Sequence record: PX880101.1 | Source: a phage | Reading direction: 5' to 3' (one strand) | DNA length: 64,000 nt | Part shown: in pieces, positions 16,585 through 30,021 of the stretch | How the letters are laid out: every line of letters begins with the position of its first letter | Numbering within the stretch: position 1 is the first letter of the stretch | Translations under genes and position numbers: made by a program | Notes under the pieces: model-generated | Told to the model about the DNA's origin: nothing | Seen by the model: only the letters and a program-made list of their open reading frames with translations | Database searches by the model: none

Positions 16585-18066
16585 TTACTTAGCATACTCG
16601 ATTAATTCCACAGTTTTCCCAAAGCTCGGGATATAATTTTTATTATACCCTTCGGTGAGAACCCATAAAGTATCGTACTTTTTCCACTTGTTGTCAACAG
16701 CCTTTTGTTCAAAGTTATGCTCAAAGTATAGGTCGGTAAGGACGATGACATCTTTTGCATTCGGTATGTTAGCATCCAGATACTCGAACACGCAGGCGGC
16801 TGTTGTGCCCCATGTTGAGTGGACCTCATAGTTGATCATCTCATCGATGTTACCGCGAGTGTATACTTTAACCTCTCCAACCTCGGTTGACCAACAGAAC
16901 ATCGTAACCTTAAACTCTTTATACAAATTGCACAACCCGGTGATCTCATTGAACATTTTCTTTAAAGTTCTTTGCGAGATCGATCCAGAAACGTCCAAAG
17001 CCACTACAATATCTATGGTGTTTTCCGGATTACGACCAGGAACAATAACGTGTTGATTCTTGTTTATAGCTCCAACTTTTCGCATTGTGGTGGTCAAAGA
17101 CCCAGATCGGCGACCAGGTTTTCTGTAGGTTAGCTCGGCCTTTCGTTTAGACAACATACGTTGCTTAATAATATCTATATAGTTGATTACAGGCTTGCCT
17201 CTGTTTTTGACAAACTCGCGCACCGCCTCAGGGCAACGACCTCCTGAAGCTTGCATTGCTGCTTCCAACATGTCACCAGAGTCCTGCATGGCCTGATCTT
17301 TATCAGATTGACTGATTACTGGTTGCGGCTGATCATACCCCATAGCCTTTCCAAGATCATCACTAGTGCCACCGTTCCCGCTCATGTGATCATCGGTTTG
17401 TCGTTTATCTCCTTGGGAGTTCTCGCCTTTACCGTTCTTACTTTTACCGCTATTCTGATCTCTTTGTTTATCAAGAACTGCATAGACGTTTTCAGCAATC
17501 CATCCATGAAACTTCATGTCGCAGTAGCAACTAGCTAAGAAGCCAAAAGGCTTACCTTTTACGAACTCAGTGCTTTTCCCCTTCGGGAAGAAAACACAAG
17601 GAGGCTTGCTAAAGTCAACCACAAGACCTGTGTTGATAACGTGATCACAAGCAATATTGAACAGTTCCGGCTCAAAGCTTTTACCACGGACCAGATGATC
17701 ACAGATAATATGCCCCACCTCATGTGACAGAAGAAAGGCCACCTCTTTCACAGATTTTGGGGAATAGAAAACCTCAGCCATCTCAAACTGCTTGTCAGTC
17801 AGAGATGCTTTAAGAATGGTTTTACGCTCATCTGCCAACCCCATAATGAACTCAGGGCTGTAGTAGATGCGTTTATGGTCTGTTGCCATAGTGGAGCACC
17901 ATGTGTGGTTTTCTACGAACTGCAACCCTGACAACAGTGTGCCATAAAACGGCAGCTTTTCAAGAAGGTACATGCGAGCGGCCTGCAGCATTCGCAAGGC
18001 ATCATCTTTTTGTGCGGTAATGATTTCTGAACTTCTGCTATCCATTAAAACTCCAGAAGGGGCCAT
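16585..18066 (-). CDS. VWA-domain protein with N-terminal HExxH metallopeptidase-like domain (DUF2201-like, MoxR-partner type)
   Basis: HEVGHIICDH (HExxH) in N-terminal half; MIDAS-like DVSGSIS (DxSxS) in C-terminal half; annotated ATG lies inside a GC hairpin, an ATG at 18045 with RBS ggag is an alternative start. Confidence 0.6.
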   Translation of the reverse strand: MAPSGVLMDSRSSEIITAQKDDALRMLQAARMYLLEKLPFYGTLLSGLQFVENHTWCSTMATDHKRIYYSPEFIMGLADERKTILKASLTDKQFEMAEVFYSPKSVKEVAFLLSHEVGHIICDHLVRGKSFEPELFNIACDHVINTGLVVDFSKPPCVFFPKGKSTEFVKGKPFGFLASCYCDMKFHGWIAENVYAVLDKQRDQNSGKSKNGKGENSQGDKRQTDDHMSGNGGTSDDLGKAMGYDQPQPVISQSDKDQAMQDSGDMLEAAMQASGGRCPEAVREFVKNRGKPVINYIDIIKQRMLSKRKAELTYRKPGRRSGSLTTTMRKVGAINKNQHVIVPGRNPENTIDIVVALDVSGSISQRTLKKMFNEITGLCNLYKEFKVTMFCWSTEVGEVKVYTRGNIDEMINYEVHSTWGTTAACVFEYLDANIPNAKDVIVLTDLYFEHNFEQKAVDNKWKKYDTLWVLTEGYNKNYIPSFGKTVELIEYAK

Positions 18067-18073
18067 TGGCCCC
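18059..18073. other. intercistronic GC hairpin (ggggcc-att-ggcccc)
   Basis: Near-identical stem to the bidirectional terminator at 12341; lies between two leftward genes. Confidence 0.4.
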
Positions 18074-18078
18074 TGTCA

Positions 18079-19068
18079 TTATTTAACGTGCTTGAAAATA
18101 CCAGCCAACTCGGTCATTGTCATGCGAGTGGTCTTCATAAGGTCTGTCATAGCCTTCTCCATGATTGGAGACACTACCATGAAGTTACCTTTGGTGAAAC
18201 CTTTGTTCCAGTCGGTAACTAATAGGGGTTTAAGTCCGGCACCGAGACGTTCACCAGTTAAAGCACAACATTTTCGAATGTATGTGCTCTTAAACTGGCT
18301 GAATGACAGATCAACTTTCATACCTGCATCGTAGAACGTCTGGCAATAGAAAGTGTAAGCTTTGGCAATCTCAACATCGTCAGGCAGTGCAGGAACCTCT
18401 TCTGTAAGCTCTTCTTCGACTCCTTGAGGCTCTTTTTCCTCTTCGTAAGCCTGTTGCGTCATCTCTTCAATCTCCTCTACTACAGGCTCGTTTACAATGT
18501 CAGAAATGTGCTTGTTGGCTCCACGATTAGCCATGAAGTTTTTAAAATCCTGCATTGGTGACATATCTTCCTCCCATTCTTCGTCAAAGAGTGCTAGTTT
18601 ATCCTCTTCCGTTCCATATTGCAAGATGAAATCTTCAAAAGTGTAATCACCTTTCAATTTCTCCATACGCTCTTCGCTCAGGTGGAGCATCATCTGCTGG
18701 ACAATTTTTCGATCAGTTTTGTCTTTAATCAAGACTGCGGTCTTTTTATCTACCAGACAGTCCTTTAGGGAGTTGCATCTCAATCCCACCACACAACAAT
18801 TATCAACCGCATAAGGACCTTCATCATCTATCCGCTCCAGAGATGGGTAGAAAGGATTTCCCAGTCCGTTTTCATCTGTGTGCATGTCGAAAGGTATAAG
18901 GGTATAGTCGCATACTCCCTCTCCTAAAAGTTTTTTACCAAATAGGAGATATTCTTCCCATGACAGGTTGAACTCTATATCCCGTTTCCGTGCGTTATTC
19001 TGTTTGCGTCTGTATTTTTTGAGCAAGCGCTCTAACTCTTCTGGTGTATAATATTTTTCAAGATTCAT
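18079..19068 (-). CDS. hypothetical protein
   Basis: ORF is open to 19128 (TTG), but ATG at 19068 lies downstream of the leftward promoter at 19100-19129; acidic C-terminal half. Confidence 0.5.
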   Translation of the reverse strand: MNLEKYYTPEELERLLKKYRRKQNNARKRDIEFNLSWEEYLLFGKKLLGEGVCDYTLIPFDMHTDENGLGNPFYPSLERIDDEGPYAVDNCCVVGLRCNSLKDCLVDKKTAVLIKDKTDRKIVQQMMLHLSEERMEKLKGDYTFEDFILQYGTEEDKLALFDEEWEEDMSPMQDFKNFMANRGANKHISDIVNEPVVEEIEEMTQQAYEEEKEPQGVEEELTEEVPALPDDVEIAKAYTFYCQTFYDAGMKVDLSFSQFKSTYIRKCCALTGERLGAGLKPLLVTDWNKGFTKGNFMVVSPIMEKAMTDLMKTTRMTMTELAGIFKHVK

Positions 19069-19099
19069 GAGTTGTCTCTTGTTCTCTGTGGGTGGAGAA

Positions 19100-19129
19100 A
19101 TCTTACCAAGTGCCTGAGAAGATGTCAAC
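19100..19129 (-). promoter_or_regulatory. sigma70-like promoter for the leftward block
   Basis: On the minus strand: TTGACA (19129-19124), 18-nt spacer, TAAGAT (19105-19100). Confidence 0.45.
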
Positions 19130-23295: not shown

Positions 23296-23322
23296 CCCCG
23301 CTTCGGCGGGGATTTTCTATTT
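23296..23322 (+). terminator. intrinsic terminator
   Basis: ccccg-cttcgg-cgggg hairpin followed by attttctattt. Confidence 0.6.
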
Positions 23323-23331
23323 GGAGCTATT

Positions 23332-23832
23332 GTGAAAATTAAAATCTTTGCTATTATTTTGAGCGCATTTTTATCGCTGCCTGTTGTTGCAGCACCAAAA
23401 CAAAAAGTATATCACACTTGCAAGCCGTCGGATACTAAGGAAAACATTCTAGCATGCAATATCTACAGGGAGGCTAGAGGGGATGGCACGATGGGTATGC
23501 TGGCATCCGGATTTGCCACACTAAACAGGAAATCTCACCCCAAATACCCAGACACTATAAGAAAGATTGTCTACCAACCTAACCAGTTTTCGTGGACAAA
23601 CCACGGCAAAACTTTTAAGGTGACAGAAAAAGATTCATGGGATCACGCTAAAAGTCTTGCAAAGATGCTTCTAAAGGTCTATAATAACAACCATGTTGCA
23701 TACATGGCTATGGATATAACAGGCGGAGCAACACACTACCATACAACAAAAGTACGACCGAAATGGGCAAAAAAGATGCAGAGGACAGCTCAATTCGGGA
23801 GCCATATCTACTACAAGGAGCGCAATAAATGA
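23332..23832 (+). CDS. secreted cell-wall hydrolase (SleB/Hydrolase_2-like)
   Basis: GTG start; N-terminal signal peptide KIKIFAIILSAFLSLPVVAAP; motifs NIYREARGDG, ATLNRK, NQFSWTN, GGATHYH resemble the SleB cell-wall hydrolase family. Confidence 0.6.
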   Translation: MKIKIFAIILSAFLSLPVVAAPKQKVYHTCKPSDTKENILACNIYREARGDGTMGMLASGFATLNRKSHPKYPDTIRKIVYQPNQFSWTNHGKTFKVTEKDSWDHAKSLAKMLLKVYNNNHVAYMAMDITGGATHYHTTKVRPKWAKKMQRTAQFGSHIYYKERNK

Positions 23833-25811
23833 TTGTAAACAGCAATGAAATTAAAGCGGTGCTAACTGGGAACATGGAGGTCACCAGGGGCTCAATTTCT
23901 CTGAACAAAGAGACTTTTGGGCTAATCATTAAAGGGATTTACGAAGATAAGGTGCTGGCAAGCTGCCGTGAACCAATCTTCAATGCTGTGGACTCCCATG
24001 TTGAGTCTGGACGGGGTGATGTACCGATCATCATTCACTCCCCTACAGACCTTGAACCATACTTCTTTGTGCAGGACGTTGGATTGGGTATGTCAGAAGA
24101 GATGGTCCGCAACACTTTCATGAACCTCGGGGAGTCAACCAAGCGCAACAGCAACGCTCTGGTAGGTAATAAAGGTGTAGGTTCAAAGGCCCCGTTCAGC
24201 ATGGTGGACACTTTCGATGTGATTAGTGTGCACAACGGTGTTGAAAGCACATATCTATTGTTCTTGGATCAGGGTATCCCAAACGTTACCAAGATCCGCG
24301 AGCGGAAGACTGAAGAGCACAACGGGGTAAAAGTTCAGTTCCATGTTAAGAAAGAGCATGTTCTGAAATATCGCACTGCTATTGCGTCATGCCTACGCTA
24401 TGCAAAGTTTCCGTTTACCGTTACCGACCCTATGACCAGTAAGATGCTGGAAGGTGACAAGGTTGAGGCGCAGTATTGCTACGAGAAAGATGGTTGGAAA
24501 ATGACTATCCTGAAAGGTTATACCAGCTCTGATGAGAGCCGTGTTGTGATGGGTCACCAACCTTACCGCTCTAAGTTCCTGGAGACATTGACCGATTACC
24601 CTGCAATCTGCGTGGAAATTCCTATTGGGGATTGCAATATTAACCCTGGGCGTGAATGGACCATAGAGGGCCATGACGACGGTGGATTCCAGGATCGCCT
24701 GGAGGCCTTTGTCAAAGAAGGTATACGTCTTCGCGGGGCAGAAGTTGTTGCAGAACTGGAGACGGCAAAAACCTCCGCAGAAGCACGTGAAATGATGAAG
24801 AATAGTGGGGTGTTCGGACACATCTTCGGCAAAAACTTTATGTGGAACCGTTGGGAAGAAACAGGACTTGGAGACTTAGGCGATTGTGAAATTTTCGCTG
24901 GCGGCTTAAATAAAGGCCGCATAGGCTATGCTCGTTATGGAAAGTCAGAGTTCTTACGGGGAGTCTATTTAGTATTTAACGACGGAGACGGCAAATATAA
25001 CCGAAATAAGTGTAACTACTTAAGCGAGATCACCGGACGCAACGTTTTCTATTGCCGTAACACGGATCTGGTGGAAGAGTTTAAAGAAGCGGCACACCAC
25101 CCGTTCTTTGCAGATACGGTCAAATTGTTATCAGAGCTCCCTCGCCGACCTGTCAAGAAAGGTGAAACAAAAACTCGTTATGAGCCAGGCTATTGGGTTA
25201 AAAAACTTGAGAAGGATGGTTACTTCCGCCGTGAGCGTATTACTAAGGCAGAGTTCCGGAAGATTAAACACTGCATCCCTTATGAGGGTGATATCCAACG
25301 TGGAAGTTGTTGGCTGGGGCAGATGAGTAACATCTACCAGCAAGATTATGACCGTGTACGTGCGGCACTTCAGATTCCTGAAGGTGAAGATCTGTATCTG
25401 GTATCTGAATCTCGTCTGCTTTGGACTGATCCTGATTGCCAGTATGTTACAGAGAAGAATGTGGAGCACCTGTTGAAAGAGGATGCTTGGAAATTCTTAC
25501 TGACCCGTGCAGCAAATGAGACTTCTTATGACAACCTGTATAGACAATTAGGGAAAATTATTCCCATGCAAGATTTTGGAAATTATCGGCCACATTTCCA
25601 CAAGTGGGAAGGTAACACCACGTGGAAGCACAGTGAGCTAAATCATCGTGCCAAAATCTTAATCGCCAACCGAGTTAAGTGCGGGAAGGCCTATATTGCA
25701 AGATTGGAAAAGAAATACCCACTTTTGAAGCATGTAGGCTTGAAATATTGGGACACCCCTGCTATGATTGAATACCGTGAGCTGATTGATACAAAGAATA
25801 ACACCAAATAA
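23829..25811 (+). CDS. GHKL (Bergerat-fold) ATPase-domain protein
   Basis: N-box EPIFNAVD (ExxxNxxD), G1 box QDVGLGM (DxGxG), G2 box GNKGVGSKA (GxxGxG) in canonical order and spacing in the N-terminal 120 aa; no Toprim motif seen. Confidence 0.55.
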   Translation: MIVNSNEIKAVLTGNMEVTRGSISLNKETFGLIIKGIYEDKVLASCREPIFNAVDSHVESGRGDVPIIIHSPTDLEPYFFVQDVGLGMSEEMVRNTFMNLGESTKRNSNALVGNKGVGSKAPFSMVDTFDVISVHNGVESTYLLFLDQGIPNVTKIRERKTEEHNGVKVQFHVKKEHVLKYRTAIASCLRYAKFPFTVTDPMTSKMLEGDKVEAQYCYEKDGWKMTILKGYTSSDESRVVMGHQPYRSKFLETLTDYPAICVEIPIGDCNINPGREWTIEGHDDGGFQDRLEAFVKEGIRLRGAEVVAELETAKTSAEAREMMKNSGVFGHIFGKNFMWNRWEETGLGDLGDCEIFAGGLNKGRIGYARYGKSEFLRGVYLVFNDGDGKYNRNKCNYLSEITGRNVFYCRNTDLVEEFKEAAHHPFFADTVKLLSELPRRPVKKGETKTRYEPGYWVKKLEKDGYFRRERITKAEFRKIKHCIPYEGDIQRGSCWLGQMSNIYQQDYDRVRAALQIPEGEDLYLVSESRLLWTDPDCQYVTEKNVEHLLKEDAWKFLLTRAANETSYDNLYRQLGKIIPMQDFGNYRPHFHKWEGNTTWKHSELNHRAKILIANRVKCGKAYIARLEKKYPLLKHVGLKYWDTPAMIEYRELIDTKNNTK

Positions 25812-25821
25812 GGAGACAGTT

Positions 25822-27027
25822 ATGATTTTCATCTACGAACACTTCAAGACTCGTAAAGAAGCACGCGACCGCCGTGCAGAACTTGAGAAGAAGGGTTTCA
25901 CATGTGCCATTGAGAAAGGCGACACAACCTGGACACTGGCAGTTGGTGCCCCAGAGTTGTTCGATCCTGACCGTGACAGCGTCTGCTACACCCGTGAGGA
26001 TTTTGAAACCCGCGAAGAGGCCCGTTTATTTCGATACGGTCTGGAAGATAACGGTAAGTACGCTATGATCTTAGACTTAGGCGAAGGTTCCGTTAAACGT
26101 TGGGGCGTGGTATACCCACTGTGTGTTGTTCACGGTGTGGGGTTCACTGGGGTGGCAATCAAGTCAGAAGAACCTTTAGTAGAAGTCAAAGACCCGGTGC
26201 TGGAGGTGGTGAGCAGTGTGTCTGAGCAACAGACTCGAAGCATCGAGCCTTTAGTAGTTATTTGTGGGGAACTCCTCCAGATCACCTGCAACGAAGGCAT
26301 TTTTGAAATTCGCCGCAGCGAAAGTGAGGAAGTTTACCAGAAAGTCTTCGACCATATCTCTGTTCAGGAATATGATGAGGCAATTGGTGAAATCCTTGTC
26401 TGGCTGGAACGCAAGAATGAGTTCACCACACTTGCAGACAACCTGATCATGAAAGATGGTAAGCTCTACTACTACGGTGTAGAGATGCGATCCACCATCG
26501 CAAAGAAAATTGAGAAAGATTATGCAGACGGAACACTGGATGACCGCTATGTGAAATTCCTCGTTCGCCTGCTACGCAATCCTTCTGCAAAATCTGTAAA
26601 CATGCTCTACGGTTTTATGCAGGCCAATGATATTCAGATTGCAGAAGATGGTCGAATCATTTGCTACAAAGGGGTTCAGTTTAACGGCAGCAAGTGGGTG
26701 GATTGGCACAGTGGTAAAGTCCCACAATACCAAGGTGCTTTTGTATCCATGCCTCGTAACTTTGTAGAGGATGATCCTGAAGCTGCGTGCTCCTATGGCT
26801 TACACTGCGCCAGCAAAGAGTATGCGAAGAGCTACGGCACTGTAATGACTGTTATGGTTGACCCTGCAGATGTGGTTAGTGTGCCATACCAACACAATAG
26901 CGCTAAGTGCCGTGCATGCCGCTATGAGATTGTGGTAGCTCCGGAAGCACGCAAGGACGGAGACCCGATTGAATACGTGGTTGACCGAGACGGTAACACT
27001 ATCGACATTCTTTACGAGGAGGCGTAA
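25822..27027 (+). CDS. hypothetical protein (possible partner of the GHKL ATPase)
   Basis: ORF is open from 25786, but ATG at 25822 follows RBS aaggaga; 401 aa. Confidence 0.5.
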   Translation: MIFIYEHFKTRKEARDRRAELEKKGFTCAIEKGDTTWTLAVGAPELFDPDRDSVCYTREDFETREEARLFRYGLEDNGKYAMILDLGEGSVKRWGVVYPLCVVHGVGFTGVAIKSEEPLVEVKDPVLEVVSSVSEQQTRSIEPLVVICGELLQITCNEGIFEIRRSESEEVYQKVFDHISVQEYDEAIGEILVWLERKNEFTTLADNLIMKDGKLYYYGVEMRSTIAKKIEKDYADGTLDDRYVKFLVRLLRNPSAKSVNMLYGFMQANDIQIAEDGRIICYKGVQFNGSKWVDWHSGKVPQYQGAFVSMPRNFVEDDPEAACSYGLHCASKEYAKSYGTVMTVMVDPADVVSVPYQHNSAKCRACRYEIVVAPEARKDGDPIEYVVDRDGNTIDILYEEA

Positions 27028-28397
27028 TGGAAAAAGGGCAGTATGATGTAGGCACAGATGCTGCCCTTGTTGCAATCATGAGTGGGGAGAATGTCTTCGT
27101 TTCAGGACCCGCAGGTTGTGGGAAGACGTACCTCATCAACATGATCCAGTCAATGTATGGAGACTCTTGCATAACGGTTGCCCCGACAGGGGTAGCCGCT
27201 TTAAACGTTAATGGAGCAACAGCACACCGAACCTTCGATCTTGCAGCAGGTGTGAGCATGGAGTCTGACTGGACTGCAATAAGGGCAAAAACAGCAAAGC
27301 CTTTGAAAAGCAAGGCATTTACCATCCTAATTATCGATGAAATCTCTATGATCCGTGCTGATAAGTTTATAGAGATGGATAGGAAACTCCGCTTCCTTCG
27401 AAAAAATGACAAACCTTTCGGAGGCATACAGGTCATATTGTTTGGCGATTTTTACCAGGCACCTCCTGTTGTCTCTTCTATGGAGAAGGAGGCCTACTTC
27501 AACTTCTACCACACAGACCTATGTTGCTATACCGAATCTTGGAAAGAGTTGGACCTTCACAACATAGCCCTAATAGACCAGTTCCGACAGGAGTCTATTC
27601 GATTTGCCACAATGCTCAACTGTGTTCGTGAGGGTCGTCGCATAAAAGAGGTTGTAGCAGAACTTAATGCTCGCTGTTACAAAGGCGGTGTACCAACAGA
27701 CGCTCTCACAATTTGCGCCACCAACAAACAAGCAGAGGAAGTGAACAGAAGGTTCTATGATGCCATCAACGCCCCAGAGAAGGTATACACTGGTGAAATG
27801 AAGGGTAAGTTTCCCTCCACCCTGCCAGTTGAGCAGGAGATGAAGTTGAAAATTGGCATGAAAGTTATGATAACCGCCAACGATGTTGACCCGACGCACA
27901 AAGTACCTTATTATGTTAACGGAACACGTGCCACAATTGTTAAATTTAAGAACAAGGCGGTGGTGGTAGAGCTTGAAGATGGAACACAGGTTGACATAGA
28001 GCAGAGGTTGTGGGAAAATAACGAGTATAAGCCATCTCAGAGATACAACATTGCAGAAAGGAAGATGGAGAAGTTTATAGAGAGGGTAGTGATTGGATCA
28101 TACAAGCAACTTCCTCTGAAATCTGGGTACGCCGTAACATCTCATAAAAGTCAAGGACTTACGCTAGATTGTTACAACCTAGACCTTGGAAAGAACGGAG
28201 CTTTCTCTCCTGGGATGACGTATGTCGCTTTGAGTAGAGTTAAGACAATACAAGGAATAAACTTGTTGCGTCCACTAAGAGAGGTTGACATTATTGTTGA
28301 CCCGCGAGTCGTAGAGTTTTACAATACAACATTCCCTGACTTAGACAAAATTGTCAGGAAAGATTTTGAAACCAGAGCAGAAGAGGGGGACGTATGA
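27027..28397 (+). CDS. Dda/RecD-like superfamily-1 DNA helicase
   Basis: Walker A GPAGCGKTYL, Walker B ILIIDEISM, conserved AVTSHKSQGLTLD motif. Confidence 0.7.
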   Translation: MEKGQYDVGTDAALVAIMSGENVFVSGPAGCGKTYLINMIQSMYGDSCITVAPTGVAALNVNGATAHRTFDLAAGVSMESDWTAIRAKTAKPLKSKAFTILIIDEISMIRADKFIEMDRKLRFLRKNDKPFGGIQVILFGDFYQAPPVVSSMEKEAYFNFYHTDLCCYTESWKELDLHNIALIDQFRQESIRFATMLNCVREGRRIKEVVAELNARCYKGGVPTDALTICATNKQAEEVNRRFYDAINAPEKVYTGEMKGKFPSTLPVEQEMKLKIGMKVMITANDVDPTHKVPYYVNGTRATIVKFKNKAVVVELEDGTQVDIEQRLWENNEYKPSQRYNIAERKMEKFIERVVIGSYKQLPLKSGYAVTSHKSQGLTLDCYNLDLGKNGAFSPGMTYVALSRVKTIQGINLLRPLREVDIIVDPRVVEFYNTTFPDLDKIVRKDFETRAEEGDV

Positions 28398-28735
28398 GTT
28401 TGTGGAGAAATATCGTTAACTACGTGTGCGGCAATCCAACTCCTGAAGAGAAGGATGTTGTGATTCACGATTTTACTAAAAGATCTCGTGAAAAAGATCT
28501 ACTGCTAACAAAGGTGACTGATAAAGATCCTGCAGTAGGGGACTGGGCAGGTTTTGCGTTTACATCGGACAAATACACCTTTAACAAAGGTGACTACCTT
28601 GTTGTGGATTTTAACGAAGACATTGAGGGTGCTGAACCTTACTATCAAACCCTTATTGTTGCAGGGTGTGTTGATCTCTCTGCAGGCATGCACAGTTTGA
28701 TTCTTTTTGAGCTTGACTCTGAAGACCTTGAGTAG
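28394..28735 (+). CDS. hypothetical protein
   Basis: 113-aa ORF, 4-nt overlap with the helicase gene. Confidence 0.5.
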   Translation: MSLWRNIVNYVCGNPTPEEKDVVIHDFTKRSREKDLLLTKVTDKDPAVGDWAGFAFTSDKYTFNKGDYLVVDFNEDIEGAEPYYQTLIVAGCVDLSAGMHSLILFELDSEDLE

Positions 28736-28795
28736 TAAGATGTGAGTATAAAGGGGAGGCACTCCTCCCCACAAAAACTAAGGAAGCACTAAACG

Positions 28796-29098
28796 ATGAA
28801 ACGTTATAAACCATACACTTTTGAAATCGATTTCGAACTTGACGATATGTTTACTGTGGAAGCTCAGGCAGTTGTCCAGTTGCCAGACTCGGAGTGCCGT
28901 GACTCTGATGTTGACTATTACGGGTTTAGACAAATTACCGATGTGCGTGTTTACCACAACGGTGAAGAGGTGGACTTCCACCAACTGCCAAACGATATGC
29001 GCCACTCAATTTACAAACGTGCAGCCCGTGAACTAGAGTCCTATCTGGATGCAGCGACGACAGCAGCTGCATTTGCTGAAGAAGTGGGAGGTTTCTGA
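28796..29098 (+). CDS. hypothetical protein
   Basis: 100-aa ORF, RBS aagga, preceded by a GC hairpin. Confidence 0.5.
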   Translation: MKRYKPYTFEIDFELDDMFTVEAQAVVQLPDSECRDSDVDYYGFRQITDVRVYHNGEEVDFHQLPNDMRHSIYKRAARELESYLDAATTAAAFAEEVGGF

Positions 29099-29493
29099 TG
29101 ATTACAGGTGTGAAGATTATCCAATACCACTTAACCAAATTGGAAGATGCTGAAAAAGAGCTTGCAGAAGTTCTGAATAGTGGATATACTTTGCTATCAT
29201 GCGCCTGCTCAGACACATACGCTGTGTGGACACTTATCCGGAAGGAAGAGCCTGCGGGGATCTTGGTGCCAAACCCTAAGATCATTAGTGAGGTGGATGA
29301 CTACGCTCAGGACGGCCTGCCAGAAGGCTGGGAAGTATGGGAAGGTGGTGAAAACCCTGCACCAGGTAAGTGGGTAAAATACAAACTGCGTAGTGGCGCA
29401 CAGTACGCTGACTATTCTGATGACCTGGACTGGAGTCATTCTTCACCAGAATCATCTGCAAGTTCCTATGATATCATAGCTTTTAAGGAATAA
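29098..29493 (+). CDS. hypothetical protein
   Basis: 131-aa ORF, start overlaps upstream stop. Confidence 0.5.
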   Translation: MITGVKIIQYHLTKLEDAEKELAEVLNSGYTLLSCACSDTYAVWTLIRKEEPAGILVPNPKIISEVDDYAQDGLPEGWEVWEGGENPAPGKWVKYKLRSGAQYADYSDDLDWSHSSPESSASSYDIIAFKE

Positions 29494-29505
29494 GGAGAAG
29501 GTGGT

Positions 29506-29988
29506 ATGTCAGATTTTATGTGGAAAGTTGGTTATTCCTCCCCTGAAATGTGTAAGGCCTGTTTTGTGAAAATAGGTCGCGAGGATATCGACAAAGTGAT
29601 TCTTAAGTTTCGTGATGTGGCTGTAATCGGCAACCGAGTGCTTAAGCACTTAAAGAATCTGAAGCTCACCAAAAAGAAGTTCTTTGGACTTTTCGAAGAG
29701 AAGGTTGATGCTTGGACCCATTGCATTCAGGAAGCTAAATCTCACTACAGTGCTATCATTACCCCAGAACGGGTAGCCAAGATGGAAGGATTCATCAACA
29801 GCACAGAGTTTGAGTGCCTGAAAGCTGCACTTGATAGTTATCCGAAATGCCTCAAGCACTTGGACAAGTATGTAGAAAAGGATGGGGAAATGTACCTAAC
29901 CCTGGACGCATATTATGAGATGCAAGAAATTTTAAATTTAGATTTGACATTGGTATCCACCGAGTATACAATAGGTATCCGGGTTTAA
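29506..29988 (+). CDS. hypothetical protein
   Basis: 160-aa ORF, RBS aaggaga. Confidence 0.5.
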   Translation: MSDFMWKVGYSSPEMCKACFVKIGREDIDKVILKFRDVAVIGNRVLKHLKNLKLTKKKFFGLFEEKVDAWTHCIQEAKSHYSAIITPERVAKMEGFINSTEFECLKAALDSYPKCLKHLDKYVEKDGEMYLTLDAYYEMQEILNLDLTLVSTEYTIGIRV

Positions 29989-29994
29989 CACTAG

Positions 29995-30021
29995 GCCCTG
30001 CCCGAAAGGGTGGGGCTTTTT
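29995..30021 (+). terminator. intrinsic terminator (repeated element, copy 1)
   Basis: gccctgccc-gaaa-gggtggggc plus T5; the same 22-nt hairpin recurs at 41057. Confidence 0.6.

Follow-up and report, generated by a model that had tools for sequence, protein, structure and literature searches.

The rIIA–rIIB gene pair of a Vequintavirus coliphage: a GHKL-superfamily protein and its partner in a probable counter-defence module

The phage sequence record PX880101.1 was analyzed over a stretch of 64,000 nucleotides (hereafter the window), with the focus on two adjacent open reading frames (ORFs) at positions 23829-27027. At the sequence level the pair is assigned on all counts to rIIA and rIIB, and it very probably represents the rIIA–rIIB counter-defence module of a Vequintavirus (rV5-like) coliphage, serving growth in cells with RexAB-type abortive infection. 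The two genes, the parts of their products, RIIA and RIIB, and the preceding Shine-Dalgarno (SD) motifs are located as follows.

23815-23820, + strand: AAGGAG before rIIA
23829..25811, + strand: rIIA gene, an ORF of 660 amino acids plus stop
23877..24398, + strand: GHKL (Bergerat-fold) ATPase domain of RIIA, approximately residues 17-190
23970..23993, + strand: N box EPIFNAVD, residues 48-55, with E48, N52 and D55, constant across family members including T4 rIIA
24075..24092, + strand: G1 box DVGLGM, residues 83-88, with D83, G85 and G87
24135..24146, + strand: lid motif STKR (S103-T104-K105-R106), matched to the lid 'SGTK' of Hsp90 when the profile was aligned to PDB entries
24165..24191, + strand: G2 box GNKGVGSKA, residues 113-121, with G113, G116 and G118
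24399..24683, + strand: second, transducer-like domain of RIIA, approximately residues 191-285, with invariant Y246
24651..24656, + strand: R275-E276 in the motif (P/S)(G/S)RE, with a candidate gamma-phosphate-sensing arginine, invariant in 30 homologues
24684..25808, + strand: C-terminal region of RIIA, residues 286-660, mixed alpha/beta
25810..25815, + strand: SD-like AAGGAG for rIIB, read from the sequence and overlapping the rIIA stop codon
25822..27027, + strand: rIIB gene, an ORF of 401 amino acids plus stop
25831..26130, + strand: duplicated beta-alpha-beta-beta units at the RIIB N-terminus, residues 4-42 and 53-103, SPOR-like and lineage-specific
26251..26991, + strand: conserved core of RIIB, residues 144-390, confident in the AlphaFold2 (AF2) model

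The source of the window is a Vequintavirus, as it shares 98-99% nucleotide identity with deposited genomes of rV5-like coliphages in which the corresponding genes are annotated as rIIA and rIIB. RIIA matched the PHROG 612 profile ('RIIA lysis inhibitor') over its full length (E 1.1e-123, residues 1-657 on profile positions 1-723 of 725) and displayed direct similarity to T4 rIIA in a BLASTP comparison (29% identity over residues 1-190, E 8e-22). RIIB matched PHROG 609 ('RIIB lysis inhibitor'; E 2.3e-61) and four further RIIB PHROGs, and proved homologous to T4 rIIB by BLASTP (36% identity over residues 172-371, E 3e-38); according to precomputed assignments, PF26926 is present in all of the 117 RIIB homologues. 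The whole 3.2-kb module was found at 92-99% nucleotide identity in 121 deposited phage records, nearly all of them from Vequintavirus coliphages, and the majority of these records annotate rIIA, rIIB, the upstream SleB/CwlJ-type hydrolase and the downstream helicase. The gene is named rIIA in slur16, inoa, rV5 and other records, several of which (rV5 included) start the genome numbering at it, and the 'rIIB protector' of rV5 is 99.5% identical to RIIB of the window. In slur16, inoa, rV5 and EdH4, all belonging to Vequintavirus, the flanking genes are the same and the module differs by point substitutions only; that of EdH4 shares 94.6% DNA identity with the window module, and its orthologues of RIIA and RIIB are 98% (647/660) and 97% (389/401) identical to the window proteins. 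Some Vequintavirus records label the genes 'hypothetical protein', 'ATP-binding protein' or 'SPOR domain-containing protein'. The feature is, in this sense, already known, being annotated in GenBank and functionally probed in a phage of the same genus.

The function of the pair is best documented outside the window. In T-even phages rIIA and rIIB serve to overcome the RexAB abortive infection of lambda lysogens, which works by membrane depolarisation. Knockdown of RIIA or RIIB in the phages T4, MM02, EdH4, SUSP1 and N4 had no effect in the absence of Rex and lowered the plating efficiency on cells with lambda RexAB (PMC11879866), and transposon data on T4 agree with this, rII insertions being non-essential without RexAB. 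Since EdH4 is itself a Vequintavirus, with RIIA and RIIB nearly identical to those of the window, the functional assignment can be transferred with high confidence; the same-genus orthologues show a T4-like, Rex-dependent phenotype. Other defence systems have also been connected with the pair: RIIB of phage T6 triggers the CARD/gasdermin defence of Lysobacter and is toxic when expressed alone (PMC10312443), and the rII pair of Bas63 was proposed to counter QatABCD (PMC11482910).

The rIIA gene lies directly upstream of rIIB, as in slur16, EdH4 and SalP219, on the same strand, with a gap of 10 nucleotides between the rIIA stop and the rIIB start, and each gene possesses its own SD sequence. In a tblastn survey of 50,697 phage records RIIA matches were found in 2643 (5.2%) and RIIB matches in 2878 (5.7%), and the breakdowns by genus were almost identical (RIIA and RIIB records, respectively: Escherichia 905 and 929, Vibrio 173 and 177, Pseudomonas 117 and 117, Streptomyces 93 and 93, Aeromonas 81 and 81, Acinetobacter 73 and 73). 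A review likewise puts the share of phages with rIIB at 5% and places the gene in one operon with rIIA (PMC13434031). Given the adjacency, the separate SD sequences and the matching distributions, RIIA almost certainly works together with the adjacent RIIB, and the suggestion of the initial annotation, which was made from the sequence of the window without database searches, that the 660-residue protein might act with the product of the gene at 25822-27027 is thus borne out. The same annotation had considered such a protein unusual for a phage; with matches in about 5% of phage records for each gene, and with near-identical genomes annotating both, this was wrong.

Two side observations concern the joining of the two proteins. 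The metagenomic protein P0102 (330 amino acids) combines the first 66 residues of RIIA with an almost complete RIIB core and is a rIIA–rIIB fusion, either natural or assembly-derived, which recalls the T4 r1589 deletion (PMC8594841). The PHROG 609 profile of 1055 positions was matched by RIIA at positions 29-186 and by RIIB at positions 806-1045, which implies, as far as profile coordinates can be read in this way, that the family includes long proteins with a GHKL N-terminus and a RIIB C-terminus; such proteins would be a possible Rosetta-stone link between RIIA and RIIB. Separately, 16 unannotated records of 'Campylobacter phage' (host C. jejuni; e.g., MG065654, MG065666 and MG065655), with genomes of approximately 135-143 kb, carry it at 94-97% identity to the rV5-like phages of E. 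coli. The host label of these records looks doubtful, or else they are coliphages present in stocks of Campylobacter phages.

RIIA belongs to the GHKL superfamily, as its motifs occur beyond chance. The N, G1 and G2 boxes follow in GHKL order and lie exactly where they had been noticed before, at residues 48-55, 83-88 and 113-121, while Pfam HATPase_c_3 matched residues 50-147 with 34.9 bits at a gathering score of 25 (E 1.8e-8), so that the Pfam check proposed for the domain came out in its favour. Conservation was assessed on an alignment of 30 database homologues centred on Vequintavirinae, in which E48, N52, D55, D83, G85, G87, S103, T104, K105, G113, G116, G118 and G166 were invariant; the profile built from it matched the N-terminal domains of the Hsp90 family in the PDB (E 6e-9 to 1e-5). 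A single-sequence search of RIIA against PDB chains found no solved rIIA relative, the best match being TRAP1 at E 0.1, and scans with NCBIfam and PADLOC returned sub-threshold GHKL-type matches only and no defence-system model. The conserved residues of RIIA correspond to those used in catalysis by GHKL enzymes that hydrolyse ATP, from which binding and hydrolysis of ATP by RIIA are predicted: E48 would act as the general base and N52 as the Mg ligand of the N box, D83 of the G1 box would bind adenine, the glycine-rich G2 box would form the hinge of the lid, and S103-T104-K105 would belong to the lid itself. The lid segment had low values of the predicted local distance difference test (pLDDT) in the structure model and appears flexible.

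The model, in agreement with the structure-prediction check envisaged in the initial annotation, displays the alpha/beta sandwich of the Bergerat fold, and its comparison with known structures gave the following scores and aligned lengths.

TRAP1: 17.8, aligned length 310
ParE 43K: 17.1, aligned length 274
T6 topoisomerase II ATPase: 16.9, aligned length 266
MORC2: 16.7, aligned length 263
SMCHD1: 15.9, aligned length 254
MutL: 15.8, aligned length 256
Histidine kinases: 8 or less, aligned length about 100

The lengths aligned exceed a bare Bergerat domain, which indicates the ATPase-plus-transducer architecture of the GyrB/Hsp90/MutL/MORC branch. Consequently, of the initial proposal of a MORC/Hsp90-like protein the likeness of fold stands, RIIA being closest to the Hsp90/MORC/MutL/GyrB group, and membership in either family does not. 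The NCBIfam HSP90 model scored 17.8 bits against a cut-off of 455, which ruled out the Hsp90 family proper; among its representatives (Hsp90, TRAP1, GRP94 and HtpG) only the N-domain of RIIA finds a counterpart by profile, the C-terminal region being unrelated. In comparison with MORC, MutL and GyrB/ParE, the domain scan of RIIA revealed no Toprim domain, no MutL C-terminal endonuclease/dimerisation domain, no CW zinc finger and no coiled coil; MORC membership was ruled out on the absence of these partner domains. Neither a Pfam match to Toprim nor an EGDSA-like or DxD motif was found in RIIA, and none was found in the downstream RIIB, which confirms what had been read from the sequence initially, and the type IIA topoisomerase subunits (GyrB, ParE and T4 gp39) were ruled out as well. 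The resemblance to Hsp90 is one of mechanism and not of family membership, and RIIA may work like the Hsp90 or MutL ATPases. Within the literature collection searched, no phage paper linked rIIA to Hsp90.

Y246, R275 and E276 of the second domain were constant across the alignment, and they recur in distant homologues ('ASRExLQY') as well as in T4 rIIA (R278-E279). The family hidden Markov model (HMM) places R275-E276 on R336-E337 of E. coli HtpG (S335-R336-E337 in 'NVSREILQ') within one HMM domain. Arginine R380 of Hsp90, equivalent to R336 of HtpG, is the middle-domain residue that contacts the gamma-phosphate of ATP. Because a sub-profile of RIIA residues 186-335 searched by itself against the PDB gave no match below E = 1, the proposed counterpart of the Hsp90 middle domain is no more than a lead. 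Conservation of the C-terminal 375 residues is confined to Vequintavirinae, and they could not be aligned to T4 rIIA by BLASTP; outside the subfamily, the tblastn matches covered 25-50% of the RIIA query.

For RIIB, sequence and profile searches against the PDB found no solved rIIB relative, the profile matching nothing there. The AF2 model (pLDDT 79.2) consists of four parts: the duplicated N-terminal units, a disordered linker at approximately residues 100-140, the conserved core, and a short low-confidence C-terminal tail (residues 391-401). Invariant in the core are N253, G277, R312, C323, G326, H328, P348, D350, V351, V352, P355, K362 and R364. Ten of these, from C323 to R364, lie within residues 323-364 (26788-26913), in a domain without a solved structural relative, and this cluster together with N253 and R312 looks like a putative binding or active site. 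A unit of approximately 45 amino acids occurs twice in the N-terminus, and its similarity to SPOR domains is sub-threshold in Pfam; the GenBank record of phage YP-6 names the RIIB orthologue 'SPOR domain-containing protein'. As RIIB has no signal peptide, a peptidoglycan-binding role of this SPOR-like N-terminus seems unlikely.

Membrane features were considered for both proteins. No transmembrane segment or signal peptide was predicted in RIIA or RIIB, the maximum Kyte-Doolittle value over 19 residues being 0.83 and 1.69, respectively, and both were rejected as integral membrane proteins for want of a strongly hydrophobic segment. The RIIB maximum belongs to a moderately hydrophobic stretch, WGVVYPLCVVHGVGFTGVAI, at approximately residues 94-113 (26101-26160), at the start of the linker, which could serve as a peripheral membrane contact.

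Compared with the pair of T4 (Tevenvirinae), the two-gene order and orientation are the same. T4 rIIA keeps all residues of the GHKL catalytic type (E47/N51/D54, D81/G83/G85, K109, G117/G120/G122 and R278-E279), whereas it is 725 residues long against 660 here and its C-terminal two thirds have diverged. T4 RIIB has 312 residues against 401, and the N-terminus of the window protein differs by its two SPOR-like repeats and disordered linker, the duplication lying outside the region that aligns with T4 rIIB. The neighbours differ too, being a hydrolase and a helicase in the window and the gp39 topoisomerase in T4.

Considering these features, the following mechanism can be proposed. RIIA would be a GHKL ATPase with two domains, of the type known from Hsp90, MutL, GyrB and MORC and either soluble or peripheral, and would bind ATP via E48/N52/D55, D83xGxG, the STK105 lid and G113xxGxG. 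R275 of the second domain would sense the gamma-phosphate in the fashion of Hsp90 R380 and HtpG R336 and couple this domain to hydrolysis, and ATP binding and hydrolysis would drive N-terminal dimerisation or a clamp cycle. The variable C-terminus of RIIA and RIIB, the latter contributing its conserved core (residues 144-390), would then neutralise the Rex sensor/channel or its trigger, so that membrane depolarisation is prevented. Regarded more specifically, RIIA as a Hsp90-type ATP-driven clamp (Bergerat domain, S-T-K lid and R275, or R278 in T4) acting with RIIB, whose cluster of Cys323, His328, Asp350, Lys362 and Arg364 could bind a ligand or catalyse a reaction, is a tentative idea that we hold to be somewhat less probable than its negation. 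If true, it would give concrete point mutants for the question of how rII defeats RexAB, and it is not specific to the window because the same residues are equally conserved in T4. For genome annotation the result amounts to routine naming of rIIA and rIIB; the wider interest lies in the rII mechanism, a 70-year-old question of historical importance, for which the residue-level picture offers mutagenesis targets across the family and not a locus-specific discovery.

Several points weigh against the assignment of the pair to RexAB counter-defence or against the details given for it. The counter-defence role is drawn by analogy, from near-identical orthologues rather than from the window sequence, and the literature repeatedly terms the biochemical mechanism of rII 'poorly understood'. 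We infer ATP hydrolysis by any RIIA, its dimerisation and the RIIA–RIIB complex. The equivalence of R275 and HtpG R336 is a lead from one HMM alignment, the middle region by itself being not significant, and the RIIA model has a predicted template modelling score (pTM) of 0.56, which leaves the domain arrangement uncertain. Finally, with no predicted transmembrane segment in either protein, any association with the membrane would need to be peripheral.

Among the other explanations, the pair could govern lysis timing or 'membrane integrity' together with the adjacent hydrolase, lysis control being primary over counter-defence. The historical r (rapid lysis) phenotype of rII counts in its favour, as do the database names ('RIIA/RIIB lysis inhibitor' or 'membrane integrity protector') and the overlap of the rIIA start with the stop of the SleB/CwlJ-like hydrolase gene, in an order kept across Vequintavirinae. 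However, the orthologues are reported to show a RexAB-dependent phenotype, membrane-spanning segments and signal peptides are predicted in neither protein, and the name is a historical label, in view of which we regard this explanation as improbable. It is slightly harder still to credit that RIIB is a specific transcription factor modulating phage transcription while RIIA acts separately, although Iyer et al. 2021 list rIIB orthologues in this capacity (PMC7824862) and the RIIB model contains a three-helix segment at residues 225-269.

The initial annotation had itself favoured a MORC/Hsp90-like ATPase that acts on nucleic acids or as a chaperone in the replication module. Spelled out further, this reading would make the protein a chaperone or DNA-manipulating enzyme and its neighbour a cofactor, and the phage would require the module to replicate or compact its DNA. 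The closeness of the RIIA fold to the ATPase modules of Hsp90, MORC, MutL and GyrB is in keeping with it, as are the neighbouring genes for a Pif1/Dda-like helicase, a primase-helicase and a MoxR-like AAA ATPase, and the position of T4 rIIA next to the gene for the topoisomerase II ATPase subunit. Against this, rII insertions in T4 are dispensable without RexAB, the absence of a defect on defence-free hosts has already been reported for EdH4, the HSP90 family score is far below its cut-off, and the domain scan gave no DNA-binding, CW or Toprim domain; the proposal is unsupported, the documented role, including that of the EdH4 orthologues, being RexAB-type counter-defence, and we consider it highly improbable. 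A split type IIA topoisomerase ATPase subunit with its Toprim/cleavage partner encoded elsewhere can practically be dismissed, because Toprim is absent from RIIA and RIIB, the profile matched along the full length is that of rIIA, not of gp39/GyrB, the sequence profiles favour Hsp90-type N-domains, and gp39 and rIIA are separate genes in T4; the initial view that the protein is not a topoisomerase II subunit was upheld.

Turning from the counter-defence pair to its surroundings, the rIIA start codon ATG and the stop codon of the hydrolase gene upstream of it overlap (ATGA), as do the rIIB stop and the start of the Pif1/Dda-like helicase gene that follows. The ORF list also holds a longer, TTG-initiated version of rIIB from 25786, while related genomes annotate the ATG at 25822. 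The order hydrolase–rIIA–rIIB–helicase is kept in the Seunavirus SalP219, where RIIA is just 40% identical. The hydrolase, a cell-wall enzyme of the SleB/CwlJ type (23332-23832, + strand; Pfam Hydrolase_2, E 2e-19), has a hydrophobic signal-like segment, MKIKIFAIILSAFLSLPVVAAP, at its N-terminus.

Two strong GC hairpins that resemble terminators, each with a T run behind it, are located on the + strand at 23296-23311 and 29993-30018 and bracket the hydrolase, rIIA, rIIB and helicase genes together with five small ORFs (28394-29988), which suggests that the block from the hydrolase gene to 29988 is one transcription unit; in the EdH4 record, the equivalent of the first of these sites is annotated as a terminator. 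At approximately 28791-28799 the window lacks about 1.33 kb present in slur16 (L001 10973-12305, with a gene annotated 'methyltransferase'), the flanks of which align to the window at 95.6-96.9% identity, and the missing segment is an indel polymorphism among Vequintaviruses. Farther upstream, at 16585-19128 on the - strand, two ORFs of 493 and 349 amino acids, with the GC skew reversed relative to the flanks, match by position two slur16 genes annotated as HNH endonucleases.

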